Source of the DNA: a virus
Taxonomy: Duplodnaviria; Heunggongvirae; Uroviricota; Caudoviricetes
IMG/VR virus record: IMGVR_UViG_2526164631_000023
Length of the DNA stretch: 64,000 bases
Direction: 5' to 3' (one strand)
Notes under the pieces: model-generated
Told to the model about the DNA's origin: nothing
Database searches by the model: none
What the model saw: only the letters and a program-made list of their open reading frames with translations
In this document: positions 1-33,953 of the stretch, piece by piece
Layout: every line of letters starts with the position of its first letter
Position numbering within the stretch: position 1 is the first letter of the stretch
Translations under genes and position numbers: made by a program

Positions 1-170
1 AGTAATCCTGGAAGCCTGCTATCGACTTCTCCCAGCGCAAGCCCTGCCAACAATGCAGTTCTTGCCATATCGCTATGTTTTTTTATCTTCTCGCTCGCCG
101 CCTTTTCATTGGCATAAGCCTCTGGGCGAAGATAAATCATCACTTTCTTACGTTCCTGAGACATGGACAT
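1..170 (-). CDS. parR: ParR-like centromere-binding protein, N-terminal part only (gene runs off the window start)
   Basis: Minus-strand ATG at 170-168 with GAGG 4 nt upstream; translation MSMSQERKKVMIYLRPEAYANEKAASEKIKKHSDMARTALLAGLALGEVDSRLPGLL; ARTALLAGLAL resembles R1 ParR; lies immediately downstream of parM. Confidence 0.55.
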   Translation of the reverse strand, partial: MSMSQERKKVMIYLRPEAYANEKAASEKIKKHSDMARTALLAGLALGEVDSRLPGL

Positions 171-176
171 ACCTCG

Positions 177-1157
177 TTAACCGATTGCTTTCAGGCCATG
201 AACAAGAGCAAGTTGCGGGTCATCCGCCACGAAGAAACGGTCATCACGAATATTAACTTGCTCGCGAATTGCATCTGCCACCAGCGGTGCGCCACCACCG
301 ATCACCATGACATGCGTATATCCTTTAAAGTCGCCAATCACATCAAGAACGCGGGTACGCAGACGGTCAATGCTTGCGGCAATGGCCTTTTTCACATCAC
401 CAATCGCTGATGGGTCATTGATATTGTCGTTCAGATAATCTTCATCGTGGCGGTTAATAATGAGCTGATCAACATTGTAATTTGACGTTTCGGTATTGGC
501 TCTGGCAAGTGCTTGCCTTACTTCCCTGGTAACCAGAGAGACGCCAAGATTCGAATCGCCAAAAACACGGGAAACTGCCGTCATTTGCCCGGCGACCATT
601 GAAACATCAAGGGTAGTTCCACCCAAATCGACGATAAGAACAGAATGGGCAGGGTTCAGATTGTCGCACAGGCCAATTCCTGCCGGAATAGACTCCGGGC
701 GTACCGTAACTTTCTTAATCGTGAACACATTGCCTTTATTCAGCGTGACGGGGCGCATAAGGCTGGCTTTCTTGCGCTCGATGTTATCGAGATTGTATTG
801 CGCGTCGTCGTCGTAAAACTCCGCCAGAGGCAGCGTGACCACAATTTCTACTTCCTGCGGCTCAATGCCACTTGTCAGCAGGGCATGGTGAACAGCCAGG
901 ACGTTAAGCGGGCTGTATTGCCATTCCACGTTATTCGTCGGCAGAACATCTGGCGAGATCAAATCATACGAATACTTTTCGTCGTCAATGACATAGTTAA
1001 ACGGCTTGCCAGCACAAAATGTTGCTGACCATCCGCGCTTAAAGCTGTTAGGGCTGATGTGAGTGCGAGTTTCCCCGTCGTGCTCCCACAGCATTTTGAT
1101 ATTGGTTGAACCATCATCGATAAAAATGCGCATCTTCTTGCTCCACTTCTGAGACAC
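177..1157 (-). CDS. parM: ParM/StbA actin-like plasmid segregation ATPase
   Basis: 326-aa ORF; N-terminus MRIFIDDGSTNIKMLWEHDG...ISPNSFKRGW...WQYS..AVHHALLTSG matches ParM (R1) signature motifs. Confidence 0.85.
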   Translation of the reverse strand: MSQKWSKKMRIFIDDGSTNIKMLWEHDGETRTHISPNSFKRGWSATFCAGKPFNYVIDDEKYSYDLISPDVLPTNNVEWQYSPLNVLAVHHALLTSGIEPQEVEIVVTLPLAEFYDDDAQYNLDNIERKKASLMRPVTLNKGNVFTIKKVTVRPESIPAGIGLCDNLNPAHSVLIVDLGGTTLDVSMVAGQMTAVSRVFGDSNLGVSLVTREVRQALARANTETSNYNVDQLIINRHDEDYLNDNINDPSAIGDVKKAIAASIDRLRTRVLDVIGDFKGYTHVMVIGGGAPLVADAIREQVNIRDDRFFVADDPQLALVHGLKAIG

Positions 1158-1158
1158 A

Positions 1159-1314
1159 TTTGAGAATCAAAATGCAATTTTAAAAGAGAAGCACCCAAAA
1201 ATCCACACCAAAAGAGATAAAAAAGAGTGATTATTGAGTTCATTTTGAGAATATCTTAATCACCCAATGAATGATGGTCTGACAGTGAGATTTATTTGAG
1301 AATGAATTGAGAAT
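1159..1314. repeat. parC-like centromere/promoter iterons (TTGAGAAT at least 4 copies)
   Basis: TTGAGAAT at about 1159, 1245, 1296 and 1307 in the region upstream of parM, divergent from the PAAR-like gene. Confidence 0.4.
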
Positions 1315-1399
1315 ACAAAAATATTCCGAAATTTAACTCTCAGTTTGAATGACGAAATAACAAAGTGATGACAATAGGAGGATAACCAGGAGGTGAAGA

Positions 1400-1684
1400 A
1401 TGAGCGCAATAGCCACCAGCGACACCCTTTGTTCTGGTCACGGAGGATTTCCGCCGCGACTGGTAGCTGAAACTGTTCCCTGGTTCACCGTTAACGGTAA
1501 GCCAATTGTTGTAGATGGTGCCATGTTTCCCAGTCACACTGACGGTAACAGTGCACATCCAGGGGCAGCTGTATCGACGCGAGTATGGTTTTCGATAGGT
1601 GGAAAGGGAGTTGTCTGTGTAGGCGATCCGCTTTCTTGTGGTTCTGTTATCGCCAACGGCGAGGATATTTTTCAGGTTGCATAA
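1400..1684 (+). CDS. PAAR-like (spike-tip) domain protein
   Basis: 94 aa; motifs CSGHGG, VNGKPIVVDG, GDPLSCGSVIANG resemble PAAR/DUF4150 repeats; RBS GGAGGTGAAG upstream. Confidence 0.45.
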   Translation: MSAIATSDTLCSGHGGFPPRLVAETVPWFTVNGKPIVVDGAMFPSHTDGNSAHPGAAVSTRVWFSIGGKGVVCVGDPLSCGSVIANGEDIFQVA

Positions 1685-2487
1685 TGCTTGATTCAATAGG
1701 TGAAGTTAAAGCCTTCAAAATTCTGTCAGATGCCGGTATCTCTACACCAGAATCTATAACCATAAGCCGGGCAGCGTCTGTAAAAGCCTCATCACTCGCC
1801 AGCGCCATACAGGGAATAGTTCACGCCGATAAAACCTATCCTGATTCTGTTTCGGCCTGGACTACTCAATTGCTTGGCTTTTCTGAACAGCTAAATGAGG
1901 CCAGCAAAGCGTCTTCATTACTGGCTGATTCTCTTTCCCCATACACCAAGCCATCAGAGCTGTTACAGATGAAGATTGGCTGGGAATGCTACGTAAAAGG
2001 TAACGAGCTGACCCCCATACCTGCTTTCGCCCTTGTTGAGGGGATGGGGAATGTTTCCATTCCGCAATCTCTAACGGACGCATTGACGGCGCTAAAACTT
2101 GATGCTCTGAAAACCGCCATGAACGCCATTAACGCAAAAATAGAAGCTGCTGGAAGTGCTGGTGGTGATAGCAATGGTGGACAGGGTGGTGCTGGGGGCG
2201 CTCAGGCTCCAGTCATTACTCAGGATGAAATTGAAGCTTTACGGGAAGCAGTGACAGCCGCCGAAGTTTTACTCTCCGAAATTAACTCAGCAAGTGAGAG
2301 TGTCGTAGCCCTTACAGGTCGCATTAAAACGTCAACCACTCAGGCAACCAAAGGTTTAGAGAACGCTGTCGCCATCACGTTAACTGGTTCTCTACTGGAT
2401 GATGCAGTAATGAGTCCGGCAATCAGTTTAATCATGCCACAAGGCGTTATCGATGCGCTCCAAAAGAACACCAAAAAGGAACCATAG
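1684..2487 (+). CDS. hypothetical protein (267 aa), start overlaps the PAAR-like stop (ATAATG)
   Basis: ORF track 1585..2487; in-frame ATG at 1684 coupled to the upstream stop; Ala/Ser/Gly-rich, no recognised motif. Confidence 0.4.
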   Translation: MLDSIGEVKAFKILSDAGISTPESITISRAASVKASSLASAIQGIVHADKTYPDSVSAWTTQLLGFSEQLNEASKASSLLADSLSPYTKPSELLQMKIGWECYVKGNELTPIPAFALVEGMGNVSIPQSLTDALTALKLDALKTAMNAINAKIEAAGSAGGDSNGGQGGAGGAQAPVITQDEIEALREAVTAAEVLLSEINSASESVVALTGRIKTSTTQATKGLENAVAITLTGSLLDDAVMSPAISLIMPQGVIDALQKNTKKEP

Positions 2488-2557
2488 CAACACCACTTAG
2501 GAACACAAAAGGATGCGAATTGGTACATGTTTAACACCAAAAATGAACCTGGAGAGG

Positions 2558-3016
2558 ATGGTTTTGAAAAAGATAATTTTGATTGTAATTGCGCTTTTAG
2601 CCATTTCTGGAATTTACCGAACAACGACGGCAGTTATCGAACACATCAGGTATGTCCGATCGCTTGAAGACTCAAAATCACAACTGGAAAGCACGAACAA
2701 CACGCTTTCTACCGCATTACAGTTAAGTGAGAACGCTCGCTCAGCCATGCTGACCGAAAACGAAAGAATTAAAGCACTGGAAAAGGAGTACCAGCGCAAA
2801 ACAGCAGAACTGAATGCCAACCTAATCAAACAACGAGAGGAAAGCCAGAATGAAATCACTCGCCTTGAAAATGCGTTGCGCCGTGCTGGGATTAACGATG
2901 TGCGTGTGCCTGATGACGTTATCAGGATGCAGCGGGAACGGGCAAAAGCCATCAACCAGCGTGCCAGTGAAAATTACCGTAGAAGCCACCAGCAAGCCGC
3001 AGGCAAATCTGATTGA
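2558..3016 (+). CDS. Rz-like i-spanin (N-terminal TM plus coiled coil)
   Basis: ORF 2513..3016; ATG 2558 follows GGAGAGG; MVLKKIILIVIALLAISGIY TM helix then Q/E/R-rich coiled coil. Confidence 0.5.
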   Translation: MVLKKIILIVIALLAISGIYRTTTAVIEHIRYVRSLEDSKSQLESTNNTLSTALQLSENARSAMLTENERIKALEKEYQRKTAELNANLIKQREESQNEITRLENALRRAGINDVRVPDDVIRMQRERAKAINQRASENYRRSHQQAAGKSD

Positions 3017-3182
3017 TTACTCCCCTTGTTTAGTGCCAGAAGACACGCCAGTGCTGTTAAACAAGTATCCGACATACGCTGAACAGTTATTCAGCACGAT
3101 CGACGAATGCAACCAACGAAACGCACTGAATAACCAAAGAAACAGGGAGATTTGGGAAGGGAAGGGGGATCAAGGCTCCTGA
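2850..3182 (+). CDS. Rz1-like o-spanin lipoprotein, out-of-frame overlap with Rz and extending 166 bp past the Rz stop (alternative start 2871)
   Basis: Signal peptide with lipobox LSGC (MRCAVLGLTMCVCLMTLSGCSG); Pro-rich mature part; overlapped spanin architecture. Confidence 0.45.
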   Translation: MKSLALKMRCAVLGLTMCVCLMTLSGCSGNGQKPSTSVPVKITVEATSKPQANLIDYSPCLVPEDTPVLLNKYPTYAEQLFSTIDECNQRNALNNQRNREIWEGKGDQGS

Positions 3183-3628
3183 AGCCAGATGTCCTGGCTG
3201 TCAGCTTCTTCGAAACCGTGACAGACGTTAAAGTCACTCAAACGATACTGACGCTGACGGCCCCTATTTCGCTCATGCCAATGCATATATCCACCAGCAA
3301 ATGCCAGCGGACAATCGCTATAGTCTATGTAACCAATACCATTCCCCAAACGTGCTTCGCGCGCACCAGCTTTCCAGGACAGTAGAAAAGAGTCACGATC
3401 CGCCAGCATAACAACAAAATCGTCCGGATCTCCGATACAGTGAAGAATACCTGCCTTACATAACTGCTTGAGCGCTTTTGACTGGCTCAGGATGTCTTCT
3501 CCGTAATACTGAAAACAATCATCAACAACAGCGGGATAGCCTGTCGGGGGATTCAGGCTGGTTGGTATAGCTGACGCGATCGCCAGCATTAAGCGATATT
3601 GTGTTTTTGATGGGTTGACGTGACTCAT
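3170..3628 (-). CDS. hypothetical protein (152 aa), second gene of a divergent two-gene operon
   Basis: ORF track; 16-bp gap to the upstream gene; convergent with and overlapping the Rz1 3' end. Confidence 0.4.
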   Translation of the reverse strand: MSHVNPSKTQYRLMLAIASAIPTSLNPPTGYPAVVDDCFQYYGEDILSQSKALKQLCKAGILHCIGDPDDFVVMLADRDSFLLSWKAGAREARLGNGIGYIDYSDCPLAFAGGYMHWHERNRGRQRQYRLSDFNVCHGFEEADSQDIWLQEP

Positions 3629-3644
3629 TTTGTCCCTTGTTTAC

Positions 3645-4037
3645 TCATTGTCGCCATGCATTTTTTAACTCAGGAATATCTGCCATTTCAATTAACTTGC
3701 GAAGTCCAGCACTGACTTTCCCATTGCCAACCATAGCAAGCCAATCTCTTACAGCTTTCGGCATGTAGAGCGTTGCAGTTACCGGCTCTTCAACCCTGGC
3801 AGGACATCCGCATACAGGCCATTTAATTGATTCCATAACTTCGGATGCCGGGGTGAGGGCGGGGACATTGAGTATATCTCTACCAGAAAACTGGATAACG
3901 ATCCGTTCAGCGAGCGAGAGTATCTCACTTTCGGCAAGAATTGATGCCAACTGCGCCTCAACAAGAAAGCGACTTGTTGTGTTCAGAGAGTGGCTCTTAG
4001 CGCCATTTTTATACGAAACAAAGATTCGATACGCCAT
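3645..4037 (-). CDS. hypothetical protein (130 aa)
   Basis: ORF track; TGTGTTAGAAA motif 14 bp upstream of its start codon. Confidence 0.4.
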   Translation of the reverse strand: MAYRIFVSYKNGAKSHSLNTTSRFLVEAQLASILAESEILSLAERIVIQFSGRDILNVPALTPASEVMESIKWPVCGCPARVEEPVTATLYMPKAVRDWLAMVGNGKVSAGLRKLIEMADIPELKNAWRQ

Positions 4038-4050
4038 AACTCTAATGATT

Positions 4051-4061
4051 TGTGTTAGAAA
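4051..4061 (+). promoter_or_regulatory. TGTGTTAGAAA regulatory motif copy followed by TAAAAT
   Basis: ATTTGTGTTAGAAAACTAAAATTAAATCACA between the divergent minus operon and the capsid-like gene. Confidence 0.4.
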
Positions 4062-4195
4062 ACTAAAATTAAATCACATAACAACATGAGTGTTAATATA
4101 TTTTATTTTACTAAACCTATTGACTAAATCACAAAGTAGGTATTGTTAGCCCGTCAAAAGAACCTTCACGCCGCGCCCGAATTTAGGGCTTAACC

Positions 4196-5893
4196 GTGAA
4201 TAAAAACATTCAGCCAGCTCGTGATCGCGAGCGCGAGATTATGAATCGGGCGGCAAGCGTCATGGCTATGACCGTCGATCCGACCACCGATGCAGCAGGC
4301 AACATGATTGCTGACCAGGCAGTAATGATGGAAAACCTGGATAAAGCAATCCAGAAAGTGCCTATGTTTGAAGGCGTAAATCCAGAGGTCGCTCGTCAGA
4401 TCACTGGTGGGTGGGCTATGTCTCTGCATGAGTATAAACGTCAACATGGTCATTACCCGGCAAGTGACATCCTGGCGAACGCACACATGGCTCTTGAGCG
4501 CCTGATGACTGAATGTGCCAGTGATACCCATGAAGGCACGGGTAAGGCAATGTTTGAGTCTGTCGCGCAATCAATGCGTAGCTCTGACGGCGTAATGAAA
4601 GTTGCTCAATATGCTGCTCTAATTCTGCCTGCCTCTCTGGGCGCTGCTACCAGTGATGCCTGTACTTTTGTTCCTTGTGATCGTGACGAGTCAAATATTT
4701 ATGAACTGGTCAACGTAGCAGGCACAAAATTCGGCACCTTCAACCAAGGTGACGAACTGAATATGCAGTCAGCTGGTGTTTATTCTCAAATGAAGCGCCT
4801 GTATGCCCTTTCCACTAAAGGGGATGGCAGCACCAAAACCTTCCAGTTCAACATCCAAAATTTTGAGGGACAATCCTGCCCGCTTCGCGCTGGTTATAAC
4901 AAACTGCTGATCAACCGCAAACCGTCCAAAGTTGACGACGGCGATGGCAACCTTTATTTCAATGCTAAAGACAGCAAAGGTAATGCTTTCTCAGCGACTG
5001 CCAAAGTTGCCTATGACACTGGTGTCATTGACATTACATTTACCCAGGCTCCGCCAGAAGGTACTGAAATTGCTGTTCAGGTCGAAATTAACATCGAGCG
5101 CAATCCAAGCCTGATTCCGGTGATCAACCAGGCTATGCGTAAGTACGAAGTTCGTCCGTCCCAGTACGTACTTGCTTCCGAACACACGGTAATGTCCGCA
5201 TCCGATTTAAGCCGTGAGCACGGCCTTGAATTAGCGGCACTTCAGTTCTCCGCGATGCGCAACTGGATCTCCCATGAAACCGACATCATGCGTCTGCGCA
5301 CCCTGGTATTCCATACCGTTTATGGTCGTGAATTTGATGTGGCTCTGCCGGAAGCTCAAAACTATGAGTCCTGGGTCGGTCTCCTGCGTCACGTAGTAAA
5401 CGCTCTGTCTCAAGAAATGGCAAATCGTACCCTGACAACGGGTATTCGTGGCGGCTTTGCTGGTAGTGACGCCGCGAACTTCCTGCGCTCTCTGCCTCCA
5501 CAGCACTTCCAGATCGCACCAGGTTACGTTCAGTCGCCGTATGTACAGTACATCGGCACCCTGTTTGGCACGATTCGTATTTACGAAGTGCCGCAACCTG
5601 TCTGTGAGCAATTCCAGGCACAGGGATATGACTTCGGGCTGGATGACATCTTCTTCTATGGGCGTGGCGAAGGCATCGGTAAAGCCGGTCTGATTGCTGG
5701 TGATGCAGTCCCAGCAATCCCTTACGTTCACGAAACCAATCCGTCTCTCGTTAACCGTACCACTCTCTGGGGCAGTGCCATCAACGAAGTACATCCTCGC
5801 AACGGTGAAAACTACTTCACCCGCCTGCGTCTGACTCGTGCCAAAGAAGGTGCTATCGACATGCTGACAGGCAAGGTTAACGAAAAAAAGTGA
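4196..5893 (+). CDS. large virion structural protein, possibly major head protein (P1 gp23-like size)
   Basis: 565 aa; position upstream of an Ig-like protein and tail sheath; assignment by size and context only. Confidence 0.35.
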   Translation: MNKNIQPARDREREIMNRAASVMAMTVDPTTDAAGNMIADQAVMMENLDKAIQKVPMFEGVNPEVARQITGGWAMSLHEYKRQHGHYPASDILANAHMALERLMTECASDTHEGTGKAMFESVAQSMRSSDGVMKVAQYAALILPASLGAATSDACTFVPCDRDESNIYELVNVAGTKFGTFNQGDELNMQSAGVYSQMKRLYALSTKGDGSTKTFQFNIQNFEGQSCPLRAGYNKLLINRKPSKVDDGDGNLYFNAKDSKGNAFSATAKVAYDTGVIDITFTQAPPEGTEIAVQVEINIERNPSLIPVINQAMRKYEVRPSQYVLASEHTVMSASDLSREHGLELAALQFSAMRNWISHETDIMRLRTLVFHTVYGREFDVALPEAQNYESWVGLLRHVVNALSQEMANRTLTTGIRGGFAGSDAANFLRSLPPQHFQIAPGYVQSPYVQYIGTLFGTIRIYEVPQPVCEQFQAQGYDFGLDDIFFYGRGEGIGKAGLIAGDAVPAIPYVHETNPSLVNRTTLWGSAINEVHPRNGENYFTRLRLTRAKEGAIDMLTGKVNEKK

Positions 5894-17448: not shown

Positions 17449-17823
17449 ATGCTTTACGAAATAGACGCAAGACTTCAAACGAATGAGAGCGGTGTCATTA
17501 TTGCAGAAGGAAGTACCGCAGCATGGATGGCCCGACTTGAGGAGTGGCTACGAACCCCTGAAGGGAGTGTTTATGGTTTACCCTCTTGGGGGAGTCCAAT
17601 GGAAGAATTTAAGCATGAACCATTCGGCTCTGAAACTTCGCACATAGTTGAAGTGGCTATTGAAGGGAGAATGATGAAAAAACTACGACAAGACTTGCCA
17701 GGTTTGGATGTGCAGGGGATTCGTTGCACATCAATTTCTGAAGATTCTTTATTAATTAGTTTTTATGCGAAAGGTGGGAGCATGGATATTGTTATGCAGA
17801 AATCAAGTGGGGTGGGCGCGTGA
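17449..17823 (+). CDS. baseplate wedge protein (gp25/W-like)
   Basis: 124 aa; size and motif pattern LRTPEGSVYGLPSWGSP. Confidence 0.4.
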   Translation: MLYEIDARLQTNESGVIIAEGSTAAWMARLEEWLRTPEGSVYGLPSWGSPMEEFKHEPFGSETSHIVEVAIEGRMMKKLRQDLPGLDVQGIRCTSISEDSLLISFYAKGGSMDIVMQKSSGVGA

Positions 17824-19250
17824 CGATTACAGAATTACTGGACAAATTTAACGCCAAGTTAAATGAAAACACATGGTGGTCACGATTTGTAAATAGTCAG
17901 TTTGTGCAGATGCACGCTATATTCGGATCGCAGCTTATTTATATTGCCCGTACATTTGCAAGCCGCGGCCTCACTGAGGGACTTATTTCAACGGCAACGC
18001 GTCGCTCAAGTATTTTAGCGGTTGCTGAAGACCGTAGCTACGTAGGGCGATTTGTTAGTGCTTCATACGGAACAACGTCTATAACCAATAAAACTGATCG
18101 GGATATTACGTTACCAGCCGGGGCTGAATTGCTTGCCAATGACCAAACACCTTTGGCAATTATTAACAGTGTTGTAATTCCTGCTGGAGGAACTGTTTCT
18201 GGCGTAGAAACTAAACAGCATGAAGCTGTTAGCATTACATTTGATATTGAGAAGGAAACTTTATTTCTGACATTGTTGCTTTCCAGAGAGTTAACAAAAG
18301 AAGTCTCTAGCCTGGATGTTTATGTTATTACAGATGGAGTAGAAGAAAAATGGACATATAACCCATTATTTAGAATGTCCAGAGACAAGAGTAAGCACTA
18401 TTCATTGGCATATAAACCTACAGAACAACTTGGAGTCAAGTTTGGTGATGGTTCTATGGGTATGATGCCTCCAGCAGGCTGTCAGGTTCGAATCGATGTT
18501 ATGGCTAGCCTTGGCGACTATACTTTGGCTGAAGGACAAAAGTTAGAACCGGCTGGAAATATCGCTCAATATGTGGAGTCACTAGAGTTTAAAACTGATT
18601 CGATCATTACCGGTGGTAGTGGTATGGAAACTACAGAAGAAACTCGAAATCGTGCTCAGTATTATGTTGCATACGATGAACAAGTGGTATGGGGCGGTGA
18701 TTATCGCCAATTCATTCAGAATGTTGTTCATGGAACTTCATGGTTGAACGTTTGGGGCGAAGCGTTGCAAGAGAAAATAACTGGGTTTGACGTTCGAAAC
18801 ATAAACAAGATTTTCTTTTGCGGACATAAGCCAGGTGTAAGCCAGGCTCAGCTAAAATCAGAAATACTGAAAGCTCTAGAGAATGTTCCAAATGAGTTGA
18901 ACAAGCGGTTTGAGTATGTAGATACAAATGAACAACCATTTACTATAAAATTTACAGGTATTGCACGTAAAAATGTTCTGATAGACGACGCTCAAAATGC
19001 TATTAAAGCAGCGTTGGAAGATAATTTTGGTCGTGATTCGTCATCATTCAGTTTATTACTACAGAGTGATGATGATTCTCAGCAATGTTATGCACAGGTA
19101 AAAGTTAAAGATATTTGGCGAGTAATAGAGTCGCTGGATATGTTTCTCTCTTATGACATAACAATACAAAATATGAAAGATGCAGTTTACTTTAATGACT
19201 TCATTTATCTTGACGTGAAATCTTCAACGTTCAGCATTTCTTACCCGTAA
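17820..19250 (+). CDS. baseplate J-like protein
   Basis: 476 aa; start overlaps the upstream stop; position in a baseplate cluster. Confidence 0.4.
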   Translation: MTITELLDKFNAKLNENTWWSRFVNSQFVQMHAIFGSQLIYIARTFASRGLTEGLISTATRRSSILAVAEDRSYVGRFVSASYGTTSITNKTDRDITLPAGAELLANDQTPLAIINSVVIPAGGTVSGVETKQHEAVSITFDIEKETLFLTLLLSRELTKEVSSLDVYVITDGVEEKWTYNPLFRMSRDKSKHYSLAYKPTEQLGVKFGDGSMGMMPPAGCQVRIDVMASLGDYTLAEGQKLEPAGNIAQYVESLEFKTDSIITGGSGMETTEETRNRAQYYVAYDEQVVWGGDYRQFIQNVVHGTSWLNVWGEALQEKITGFDVRNINKIFFCGHKPGVSQAQLKSEILKALENVPNELNKRFEYVDTNEQPFTIKFTGIARKNVLIDDAQNAIKAALEDNFGRDSSSFSLLLQSDDDSQQCYAQVKVKDIWRVIESLDMFLSYDITIQNMKDAVYFNDFIYLDVKSSTFSISYP

Positions 19251-19260
19251 TGAGGTTAGC

Positions 19261-20106
19261 ATGAAAGATAATTGGCTTAAGGAACGATTAACTAAAGTAA
19301 AACAGGATTCACATCTCTGGAGTGCATTTATAGACGCTTTACAGGATGTCTGGAATGAGGCAGTAGAACCAATATTAACAAGAATAAGTAACAGAAAATC
19401 CTTCTTCACTATGGACAGTGAGGACATGGATGCCCGCATTGCTGAATACGGGCGTTTTTTCGTTATCACTGAAAAAGATAAGGACCGTAGGCCAATGCTG
19501 CTGGCGCAACGTTTAGATGAAGTGCACTTTAAAGGCACTATCTTGCCTATTGAGCAGACATTCTGGCGTGAATTCGGTTGTATTCCTGTTAGTTGGGAAC
19601 CGCTGTATGCACCTGTAAATATAGAAAAACACCCCTATGGTTCATATTTTGCGACCGAAATAGAAATACCTACGGCACAGGCTCAATTCGGTGAGTTCTT
19701 CCTGACATCAAGGGGGCTGGTCGTTGTTGATCAGAACAAGCTATATCGCTCATATGGAGAGCAGGATAAAGAAGCCGCTGTGCAGAAATTGTTATCTGAC
19801 TTCGAAACAGTAATAGCCCCTTTGTTGCCATTGCATATTGTTTTTGATGGCGTCTCGTTTCGGCTTAGTGCTGTATTCCCTGAAGTGGCAGAAATACTAA
19901 ATTGCTTGTCTACGGATGTTTCGGTAATTGAAGGTGTTTATGTTACTGAGAGTATGGCTGATATGCTATCCCGTAGTGATACCTCCTGCCAGGTAAACAA
20001 TATTTCTCTTAACGCCATACCGAACAGAACGGCAGAAAAGCAATTACATCTTGATGTAACCCCACTCGATGCGTGGCCTTTGGATTACCACCTTCAACCT
20101 GTTTAA
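19261..20106 (+). CDS. baseplate/tail protein
   Basis: 281 aa; followed by a hairpin terminator at about 20110-20135. Confidence 0.3.
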   Translation: MKDNWLKERLTKVKQDSHLWSAFIDALQDVWNEAVEPILTRISNRKSFFTMDSEDMDARIAEYGRFFVITEKDKDRRPMLLAQRLDEVHFKGTILPIEQTFWREFGCIPVSWEPLYAPVNIEKHPYGSYFATEIEIPTAQAQFGEFFLTSRGLVVVDQNKLYRSYGEQDKEAAVQKLLSDFETVIAPLLPLHIVFDGVSFRLSAVFPEVAEILNCLSTDVSVIEGVYVTESMADMLSRSDTSCQVNNISLNAIPNRTAEKQLHLDVTPLDAWPLDYHLQPV

Positions 20107-20200
20107 TAATTCTTCCCCCAAATGCGGGGGAAGAACAACGGAAATCACAAACTGAGCATACTCTCCTTTGGTTCATTGCTTATGAAGGGGCTATGTTCGT

Positions 20201-28619: not shown

Positions 28620-28723
28620 ATGTCCCCCTTGTATGTTAAGGAGGGAGATTTTAGAAGATGTCCTGTAAGGAAATAACAAACTGACTAAGTTAGTGGCGCA
28701 TTAGATGTTATTTCTGGAGGGGT

Positions 28724-33889: not shown

Positions 33890-33953
33890 ACCAACCGCTG
33901 AAATCACATACTGATTATGCTGCCGCAAAACTGGAAACAATTTGCGGTGATTC

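Follow-up and report, generated by a model that had tools for sequence, protein, structure and literature searches.

Orthologs of P1 upfC and upfB beside the partition locus of a D6-type phage-plasmid very probably encode the tail spike tip and its tripod

Why should a gene for a PAAR-like protein, of the kind expected at the tip of a contractile-tail spike, lie next to plasmid-partition genes rather than with the baseplate genes, and what is the protein encoded directly downstream of it? The question is raised by a stretch of 64,000 nucleotides (hereafter the window) from the virus record IMGVR_UViG_2526164631_000023, which is a D6-like Escherichia coli phage-plasmid. Over the segment studied here, it is 100% identical to the E. 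coli plasmid NZ_CP066033.1, whose annotation gives the first gene as coding for a PAAR domain-containing protein, and 98.2% identical to phage D6, where the two genes are annotated as 'similar to P1 upfC / upfB'. D6-type phage-plasmids occur widely in E. coli and Salmonella, and 123 plasmid records match the upfC/upfB segment. The features of the locus are as follows:

177..1157 (start at 1133 or 1157), minus strand: parM, StbA-type actin-like partition ATPase (PF06406, E 7e-69; PF21523, E 3.5e-55)
1150..1317, no strand assigned: parC-like iterons, (T/A)GAGA(A/C), spaced ~11 nt, repeat families D1 and D2, in the parM-upfC intergenic region
1355..1375, plus strand: putative late (Lpa-type) promoter, with the box AAATAACAAAG at 1355-1365, a 4-nt spacer and a -10-like GACAAT at 1370-1375
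1388..1395, plus strand: strong Shine-Dalgarno sequence of upfC, AGGAGGTG, read directly from the sequence
1400..1684, plus strand: upfC ortholog (D6 orf57), ATG start, 94-aa PAAR-fold protein, very probably the tail spike tip
1684..2487, plus strand: upfB ortholog (D6 orf56), ATG start, 267-aa protein predicted to be all-helical
2564..3016, plus strand: Rz-type i-spanin (D6 orf55), third gene of the array (PHROG 214/89 Rz-like spanin, E 4e-15)
2850..3182, plus strand: Rz1-type o-spanin lipoprotein (D6 orf54), overlapping the end of Rz in another frame

Both reading frames are present just as the first-pass annotation had described them, at 1400-1684 (94 aa) and 1684-2487 (267 aa) on the plus strand, and the ATAATG junction that it reported is correct because the upfC stop TAA (1682-1684) and the upfB ATG (1684-1686) have one base in common (TAATG). 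The GGAGG core of the upfC Shine-Dalgarno sequence ends 6 nt ahead of the ATG at 1400. With dN/dS values of 0.05 for upfC and 0.15-0.19 for upfB, the two are real coding genes under purifying selection. The third gene, D6 orf55, is syntenic with a P1 gene annotated as Rz. The fourth, D6 orf54, is annotated in D6 from 2961, the choice of start codon being inferred; a signal peptide and an LSGC lipobox can be recognized in its translation (MKSLALKMRCAVLGLTMCVCLMTLSGC...), and the syntenic P1 gene is annotated as Rz1.

That the 94-aa protein is PAAR-like, as had been proposed from the sequence, is established far beyond chance. In profile-level sequence comparison it matches the PDB chain 9vyi_A, 'UpfC', with E 1.8e-35, the PHROG 281 family ('PAAR motif') with E 1.3e-28, T4 gp5.4 (5iv5, 4ku0) with E ~1e-5 and the Vibrio cholerae PAAR protein 4jiv with E 0.02, and it is 56% identical to P1 UpfC over 94/94 residues. 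The Pfam model PF05488 (PAAR_motif) scores 26.4 bits (E 8.2e-6), 0.6 bits short of its curated cut-off of 27.0, and most 94-aa homologs carry a precomputed match to it. The other family named beforehand, DUF4150, gave no match at E<=1 in the Pfam scan. The AF2 model (pLDDT 95.6) has the conical all-beta PAAR fold, and in Foldseek searches it superimposes on the P1 baseplate chain (9vyi) with TM 0.96 and an rmsd of 0.8 A, on T4 gp5.4 (4ku0_D) with TM 0.93, and on the PAAR proteins 4jiv_D and 4jiw_D with TM 0.88 and 0.90, all four at probability 1.00. H14, H46, H53 and C80 are invariant across 29 homologs down to 32% identity and align with the His/His/His/Cys of T4 gp5.4. The protein has the ligand pattern of the predicted apical metal site, namely three histidines and one cysteine, which PMC10715212 describes as a zinc site of PAAR proteins and gp5.4.

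These results also bear on whether the reading frames might be chance or misannotated ones, with the PAAR resemblance a compositional artefact of a Gly/Val/Ser-rich peptide. The narrow shortfall against the PF05488 gathering score could be read that way, as could the name 'alanine racemase' given to UpfC homologs in some database entries, a name which rather tells us that database annotation of UpfC is unreliable. We take this idea to be refuted, its residual probability being negligible, by the match to a solved chain at E 1.8e-35 with a model TM of 0.96, by the dN/dS values of 0.05 and 0.15-0.19, by conservation in at least 41 loci and by the strong ribosome-binding site. The 'misassigned domain' that had been held open as an alternative falls with it, given the orthology to P1 UpfC (56% identity, model TM 0.96).

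The 267-aa protein is likewise an ortholog of a P1 protein. PHROG 1559 matches it with E 5.1e-111 over residues 1-264, hhalign against P1 UpfB gives a probability of 99.9% (E 2.5e-32, 258 columns), and tblastn aligns it to the UpfB of P1, P7 and SJ46 with 27-28% identity over 98% of its length. This family is found only on P1/D6-type phage-plasmids. The AF2 model is an all-helical monomer (pLDDT 82.6). Its Ala+Ser+Gly content is 33%; a Gly-rich linker is confined to residues ~153-175, with 160-172 disordered in the model, and the remainder is predicted with high confidence to be helical, so the earlier description of a generally low-complexity Ala/Ser/Gly-rich protein does not hold. No transmembrane segment or signal peptide was found (maximum Kyte-Doolittle 19-residue mean 1.39), and searches of Pfam, NCBIfam and the PDB (by sequence and by Foldseek) revealed no domain of a toxin or an enzyme. 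No UpfB chain was found in the PDB, and a fold search of it with the UpfB model returned only generic long-helix matches such as BAR domains and PilJ (E>0.03, TM<0.3). In BFVD the same model recovered DUF7217 proteins (Foldseek probability 1.0, E 6.5e-3 to 2e-2, TM 0.41-0.60); Pfam reported no DUF7217 match in the 267-aa protein or in ten distant family members. The predicted resemblance is weak and is offered as a lead only, helical bundles being prone to yield many spurious fold matches.

The first-pass annotation had suggested that the pair could be a spike tip with a tip-attached cargo. The tip and its attached partner stand, by orthology to UpfC and UpfB of P1. The word 'cargo' does not: an enzymatic or toxin domain is lacking, and the UpfB tripod of P1 has been described as a structural part of the tail rather than as an effector that is injected (PMC12810830; PMC13611949). 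The same evidence weighs on a version of the cargo idea in which the genes form a moron in the style of type VI secretion (T6SS), serving the T6SS of the host or carrying the 267-aa protein as a toxin, rather than making a structural tail part. Its attractions are that the category assigned to PHROG 281 is 'moron, auxiliary metabolic gene and host takeover', that the fold matches the T6SS PAAR proteins 4jiv and 4jiw at TM 0.88-0.90, that the T6SS PAAR model NF033420 matches with E 2.9e-8, and that plasmid-maintenance genes, not baseplate genes, surround the pair. The NF033420 match, however, reaches only 33.7 bits against a cut-off of 124, and the 94-aa protein is by far most closely related to P1 UpfC and T4 gp5.4, both of them virion proteins. 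Moreover, it is a minimal PAAR cone without an extension domain, its partner has none of the toxin or enzyme domains sought, and what follows downstream is not an immunity gene but Rz and Rz1. The neighbors of the pair are genes of phages and plasmids, with none of a T6SS among them; the pair itself occurs on no elements other than P1/D6-type phage-plasmids, where the spike gene 5 invariably precedes it, and it shares a late-promoter box with structural operons. We therefore consider a T6SS-style moron very improbable.

The genomic position, which had seemed anomalous, is in fact the normal one for this phage family, as is already on record in the literature. The baseplate genes at 17449-20106, ~16 kb from upfC, are indeed there, and they are wedge genes only (D6 pmgA/bplA/gene 16, 99.2% identity). 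The genes for hub (6) and spike (5) are located in D6 ~7.3 kb away on the far side of the partition locus, outside the window. Related loci with enough flanking sequence carry on one strand, in this order, gene 6 (hub), gene 5 (spike), hrdC, a variable insert, upfC, upfB and Rz; wherever the contig reaches them, genes 6 and 5 are on the same strand 4.7-8 kb upstream of upfC, with the identity of gp5 checked. The order upfC, upfB, Rz is kept in 41/41 loci, with upfB directly downstream of upfC, and the one-base stop/start overlap of the two in 39/41. Hence the tip gene is not misplaced with respect to a baseplate cluster: throughout the family it is found downstream of genes 6 and 5, separated from them by a variable insert. 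The divergent parM noted at the outset is confirmed on the minus strand (177-1133/1157, PF06406 E 7e-69), and its D6 counterpart, orf58, is annotated as StbA. Similar iterons occur only in relatives with ParM/StbB, whereas those with a ParA-type system have different repeats at this place. The insert site upstream of upfC is a hot spot for the exchange of partition modules (ParMR, ParA-type, or none), and the adjacency to parM is incidental, the parMR cassette being one of several interchangeable plasmid-maintenance inserts. The iterons and parM are context and lie outside the tip module.

The motif AAAT[CA]ACAAA[CG] occurs four times without mismatch in the window, where 0.36 occurrences are expected (none of 100 shuffles attains four), and all four are on the plus strand, 45-70 nt ahead of upfC, gene 23, R and lydA; a copy with one mismatch lies upstream of the portal gene. 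The late box that upfC shares with the operons for capsid, tail fibre and holin is retained ahead of upfC even in divergent relatives. It may function as an Lpa-type late promoter (lpa being orf4 in D6), and the transcription of upfC-upfB is probably late. The DNA upstream of upfC is not alignable with that of P1, and therefore the P1 promoter annotation cannot be transferred. A scan of 1000-3400 for generic sigma-70 promoters and terminators gave counts not above shuffled expectation. As a candidate Lpa site, the palindrome AACTCTCAGTT (1334-1344) was rejected, since its 20 matches at three mismatches, against 16 expected, are a chance outcome. No perfect inverted repeat of 7-9 nt with a TAnnnT behind it was found upstream of late genes; two palindromes from the inverted-repeat scan may be cix-like inversion sites. 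With a consensus for the P1 C1 operator, no match was found in the window at <=3 mismatches, and thus there is no evidence of P1-type C1 control here.

Taken together, the two genes are the D6-lineage orthologs of P1 upfC and upfB and very probably act in the same tip role, and by orthology their products would occupy P1-like positions in the virion. In P1, cryo-EM has shown that a monomeric UpfC caps the gp5 trimer like T4 gp5.4 and that three UpfB trimers form a tripod anchored on UpfC (PMC12810830; PMC13611949; PLoS Pathog 2026). Transferred to the D6 lineage, where an ortholog of the gene-5 spike is present in D6 and its relatives, one copy of UpfC would sit on the blunt end of the trimeric beta-helical gene-5 spike at the center of the contractile-tail baseplate and would sharpen it via a metal ion held by three histidines and one cysteine, like T4 gp5.4 on gp5. 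Three UpfB trimers would be anchored as a 'tripod' on the PAAR cone, as in P1; being at the very tip of the tail, UpfB would therefore be the first part of the virion to meet the cell envelope upon sheath contraction and may have a role in envelope contact or penetration. The two proteins would be translated as a coupled pair by way of the TAATG junction, followed by the Rz/Rz1 spanin genes, under the predicted late promoter upstream of upfC whose box recurs at the capsid, tail-fibre, holin and portal operons.

It is also conceivable that UpfC is the spike tip and that the 267-aa protein is a non-virion component in the D6 lineage, such as a chaperone for assembly of the tip or an accessory protein that works with the co-transcribed spanins at the envelope or in lysis. 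In favor of this, upfB is co-transcribed with Rz/Rz1 in every lineage, its product is only 28% identical to P1 UpfB, and by dN/dS it is less constrained than its structural neighbors; in P1, it is dispensable (PMC10695390), and the P1 density for it, of medium resolution, was interpreted by the fit of an AlphaFold3 model rather than built (PMC12810830). Against it stand the homology to P1 UpfB over the full length, including a Gly-rich linker at the corresponding position, and the coupling to upfC kept in 39/41 loci, as fits co-assembling proteins. The absence of a signal peptide or transmembrane segment likewise makes a periplasmic or spanin-like role unlikely, and the extra density on the tip in the P1 map is fitted by the trimer model (PMC12810830). 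On balance we regard a non-virion UpfB as unlikely, and a structural tripod remains the preferred reading.

UpfB is the fastest-evolving protein of the neighborhood, at a rate 3-4 times that of UpfC and the capsid protein (e.g. 60% identity where both of these show 88%), and is therefore a reasonable candidate for host-specificity testing. Its conserved islands are residues 1-20, 91-105, 141-150 and 221-255. A speculative extension, to which we give limited credence, is that UpfB may be a rapidly diversifying, host-envelope-specific adaptor at the tail tip, for secondary receptor recognition or for crossing the outer membrane and periplasm, with the variable helices ~25-90 and ~155-220 tuning penetration to different hosts. 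If true, this would make UpfB a conditionally essential, hidden host-range determinant of P1/D6-type phage-plasmids, and it would explain why UpfB is dispensable on laboratory E. coli yet under purifying selection, why it evolves so much faster than UpfC and the capsid protein, and why upfB is constantly co-transcribed with envelope-spanning spanins.

A spike tip with an attached partner is already known, and beyond correct annotation the significance is slight: the many records in which they appear as 'hypothetical', as 'alanine racemase' or as 'PAAR motif of membrane proteins (moron)' can be changed to tail spike tip (UpfC) and tip tripod (UpfB). There are three modest additions to the P1 structural paper, namely a backbone of 6, 5, ..., upfC, upfB, Rz split by a hot spot of partition-module exchange, a late-promoter box on upfC-upfB as on the capsid, tail-fibre and holin operons, and the rapid evolution of the tripod protein.

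Among known systems, the T6SS PAAR proteins (V. cholerae VCA0105, 4jiv; E. coli c1882, 4jiw) have the same fold as UpfC and the same zinc-site pattern; UpfC differs from them in that it would cap a phage spike and not VgrG, and has neither an effector extension nor a T6SS context. The DUF7217 proteins compared with UpfB, from Pectobacterium phage Wc4, Serratia phage vB_SmaA_3M and Escherichia phage FEC14, are without sequence-level support. T4 gp5.4 is a PAAR cone capping the gp5 beta-helix, with TM 0.93 and metal ligands that align with those of the D6-type UpfC. The two are only ~24% identical, T4 lacks a tripod of the P1 UpfB type, and P1 gp5 is without the lysozyme domain of T4 gp5 (PMC12810830). 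The closest parallel is P1 itself, where both upfB and upfC are non-essential by CRISPRi and in earlier work (PMC10695390). There, upfC starts with GTG, as opposed to the ATG with a strong Shine-Dalgarno sequence of the D6 type; upfB follows after an 8-nt spacer with its own Shine-Dalgarno sequence instead of an overlap; and the upstream neighbor in the P1 record used is hrdC with ~450 bp of unannotated DNA instead of a divergent parMR. The UpfB proteins are only 27-28% identical, yet they share full-length homology, an all-helical structure, a Gly/Ser-rich linker at the same place and the same gene order. P1 UpfC has the same length (94 aa) and the same invariant His/His/His/Cys as its D6-type counterpart, and the two loci have the same upfC-upfB-Rz-Rz1 array.

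The gene pair beside the partition locus comprises the orthologs of P1 upfC and upfB. The first-pass annotation had described a PAAR-like gene (1400-1684) joined to a 267-codon ORF (1684-2487) and divergent from parM (177-1157); this arrangement stands, as does the ATAATG junction, in which the A of the downstream ATG is the last base of the upstream TAA stop.

177-1157, divergent from upfC: ParM/StbA-type partition ATPase gene
1150-1317, parM-upfC intergenic region: iterons (T/A)GAGA(A/C) / TTGAGAAT, spaced in part by 11 nt
1400-1684, plus strand: upfC ortholog, 94 codons, ATG start preceded by AGGAGGTG
1684-2487, plus strand: upfB ortholog, 267 codons, ATG start
2564-3016 and 2850-3182, plus strand: overlapped Rz/Rz1 spanin pair, directly 3' of upfB
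3170-3628 and 3645-4037, minus strand: conserved homologs of D6 orf53 and orf52 (PHROG 8101, 7830), between the spanins and the capsid gene

Positions 1-4200 are 98.2% identical to Escherichia phage D6, a P1-related myovirus kept as a plasmid, in whose record orf57 and orf56 are 'similar to P1 gene upfC' and 'similar to P1 gene upfB', respectively. Plasmid records matching 1100-3200 number 123 (E. coli, Salmonella and Shigella), and E. coli plasmid NZ_CP066033.1 is 100% identical over this interval. RefSeq plasmids already label the 94-aa product 'PAAR domain-containing protein'. Elsewhere it is called 'alanine racemase' (homologs P0028, P0048, P0051 and P0056; plasmids CP057572.1 and CP099081.1), which appears to be a propagated misannotation.

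The PAAR-like assignment of the 94-aa protein is borne out by several lines of evidence. Its best PDB sequence match is 9vyi chain A, named UpfC (E 1.8e-35), followed in order by a Klebsiella phage baseplate chain, T4 gp5.4 (E ~1e-5) and the V. cholerae PAAR protein 4jiv; it also matches PHROG 281 ('PAAR motif', E 1.3e-28) and is 56% identical to P1 UpfC across 94/94 residues. Pfam PAAR_motif scores 26.4 bits (E 8.2e-6), 0.6 bits under the curated cut-off, and the suggested DUF4150 relationship found no match in the Pfam scan. An AlphaFold2 model built with 29 homologs (pLDDT 95.6) superimposes on the P1 baseplate entry with TM 0.96 and rmsd 0.8 A, on T4 gp5.4 with TM 0.93, and on the T6SS PAAR proteins 4jiv and 4jiw with TM 0.88-0.90. 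A T6SS component was considered as its identity and rejected: the NCBIfam T6SS PAAR equivalog, whose cut-off is 124 bits, gives only 33.7. Taken with the matches and superpositions, this makes it a phage-type PAAR tip. Residues H14, H46, H53 and C80, invariant in the family, align with the His, His, His and Cys of gp5.4, and would thereby reproduce the three-His/one-Cys zinc site that PMC10715212 reports for PAAR proteins and gp5.4.

The 267-aa protein has no sequence match in Pfam, NCBIfam or the PDB. It matches PHROG 1559 over its full length (E 5e-111), and tblastn recovers only D6 and P1, P7, SJ46 and similar phages, the UpfB proteins of the latter set being 27-28% identical at 98% coverage. 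A 15-homolog profile aligns with P1 UpfB over 258 columns (probability 99.9%, E 2.5e-32), and both share a Gly/Ser-rich linker at the equivalent position. Searched exhaustively with HMMER, 1.84 billion representatives yielded only 73 clusters, essentially all of single-domain proteins of 240-265 aa; as judged by these searches, the UpfB family is small and lineage-restricted. Its earlier description as an Ala/Ser/Gly-rich, low-complexity protein holds for composition (Ala+Ser+Gly 33%), but low complexity is limited to the Gly-rich linker at ~153-175, the remainder being confidently predicted helices. The AF2 model consists of helices (pLDDT 82.6) with a disordered linker at 160-172, and no transmembrane segment was found. 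A PDB fold search with it gave no significant match, and one of BFVD gave only weak matches to DUF7217 phage proteins, which Pfam does not confirm. These (A0A5P8D468, A0A385IRV1, A0A3G2YS51, A0A2H4PNY0) come from unrelated phages (Pectobacterium Wc4, Serratia 3M and Escherichia FEC14); were the likeness real, tip-associated helical proteins may extend beyond the P1/D6 group.

The PAAR gene had seemed misplaced relative to the baseplate cluster at 17449-20106. Three D6 homologs do lie there, those of pmgA, bplA and gene 16, whose products are the three wedge proteins in P1 (PMC12810830); however, the cluster likewise lacks genes 6 (central hub) and 5 (spike), and upfC occupies its place in a conserved gene order. 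In D6, genes 6 and 5 lie at 64162-65792, ~7.3 kb past the partition locus, in a part that the window does not include. We mapped marker proteins by tblastn on 36 IMG/VR loci, three Logan contigs, D6 and P1. Wherever the contig is long enough, the same-strand order is 6, 5, hrdC, a variable 2-6 kb, upfC, upfB and Rz (gp5 assignment checked directly, 63% identity), with orf52 and capsid gene 23 further downstream in most loci; P1 reads upfC-upfB-Rz-Rz1-upfA-repA-parA. The variable stretch carries methylases and one of three partition arrangements:

ParM/StbB: D6 group, L007, L030, L033/L034
ParA-type ATPase: L006, L028/29, L032, L035-37, L043
no recognised partition gene: L031, L038-42, L044

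In D6, StbAB and a truncated ParA-like orf60 occur together in this stretch. The hrdC/methylase-upfC site (window 1-1400) is an insertion/exchange hot spot for partition modules, and the divergent parM-upfC pairing is a lineage-specific accident of it. Iterons like those at 1150-1317 are confined to relatives with ParM/StbB, ParA-type loci having other repeats there; this tie to ParMR makes the parC centromere, with the parM promoter region, their probable identity rather than a part of the tip operon.

Downstream, the Rz1 ORF from 2850 (or 2871) encodes a full signal peptide and LSGC lipobox; the start in the D6 record, equivalent to 2961, lies only 10 residues ahead of the lipobox Cys, probably too short a segment. 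The orf53 homolog is under very strong constraint (dN/dS 0.02), and orf52 adjoins gene 23 in most lineages with that region covered (the P1 locus ends short of gene 23).

A box, AAAT(C/A)ACA(A/G)A, is common to upfC upstream regions in lineages down to 38% UpfB identity, and an identical or closely related box precedes gene 23 in the same comparison. In the window AAAT[CA]ACAAA[CG] has 4 exact copies, all on the plus strand, against 0.36 expected (4 reached by 0/100 shuffles). Downstream of them, at 45-70 nt, are upfC, gene 23, the tail-fibre gene R and an ORF whose length, 108 aa, matches that of the lydA holin. A 4-nt gap separates each box from a -10-like hexamer on its 3' side (GACAAT, TATTGT, CATACT, TAAGTT). 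A copy with one mismatch, of the same spacing to hexamer and gene, precedes a 560-aa portal-sized ORF.

4126-4136, 20142-20152, 28671-28681 and 33901-33911, plus strand: box copies AAAT(C/A)ACA(A/T)A(C/G) before gene 23, R, lydA and the portal gene

PMC10695390 gives 11 Lpa-dependent late promoters for the P1 late genes, and D6 encodes an Lpa homolog. From the motif distribution we infer a D6-type late promoter, a candidate for Lpa dependence, and a putative upfC-upfB-Rz-Rz1 late operon. Upstream of P1 upfC (L002 5903-5919), ATATTTATTAGAGCAAT, read as its reverse complement, matches the P1 C1 operator consensus, ATTGCTCTAATAAATTT, at 16/17 positions, a hint of possible C1 control of the P1 upfC operon as well. 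The window holds no site for this consensus at up to 3 mismatches.

In comparisons with five related loci, UpfB consistently ranks with the most diverged neighbourhood proteins, far beyond UpfC (in L024: UpfB 60%, UpfC 88%, Rz 86%, ParM 93%, capsid protein 88% identity). Purifying selection nonetheless acts on UpfB, whose dN/dS is 0.15-0.19 (UpfC 0.05, capsid protein 0.03-0.05). In a 52-sequence alignment, residues 1-20, 91-105 (PSxLxQxxIGW), 141-150 and 221-255 are conserved and 25-90 and 155-220 variable; one reasonable reading is that the islands would provide the UpfC contact or trimer core, and the variable helices would face the host envelope.

In P1, a 2026 cryo-EM study built UpfC as the tip, one monomer on the gp5 spike trimer, an arrangement 'strikingly similar' to that of T4 gp5/gp5.4, and medium-resolution density on that tip was assigned, by AlphaFold3 model fit, to three UpfB trimers forming a 'tripod' (PMC12810830). 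The proposed tip with attached partner therefore agrees with the published orthologs, but 'cargo' in the T6SS-effector sense is unsupported. Both genes score as non-essential for P1 plaque formation by genome-wide CRISPRi (PMC10695390), as in earlier work which that paper cites. The novelty here is incremental: a backbone synteny with a partition-module hot spot, a common late box and fast evolution of the tripod protein, whereas the tip and tripod pair is itself a regular component of P1/D6-type phages and has been described before.
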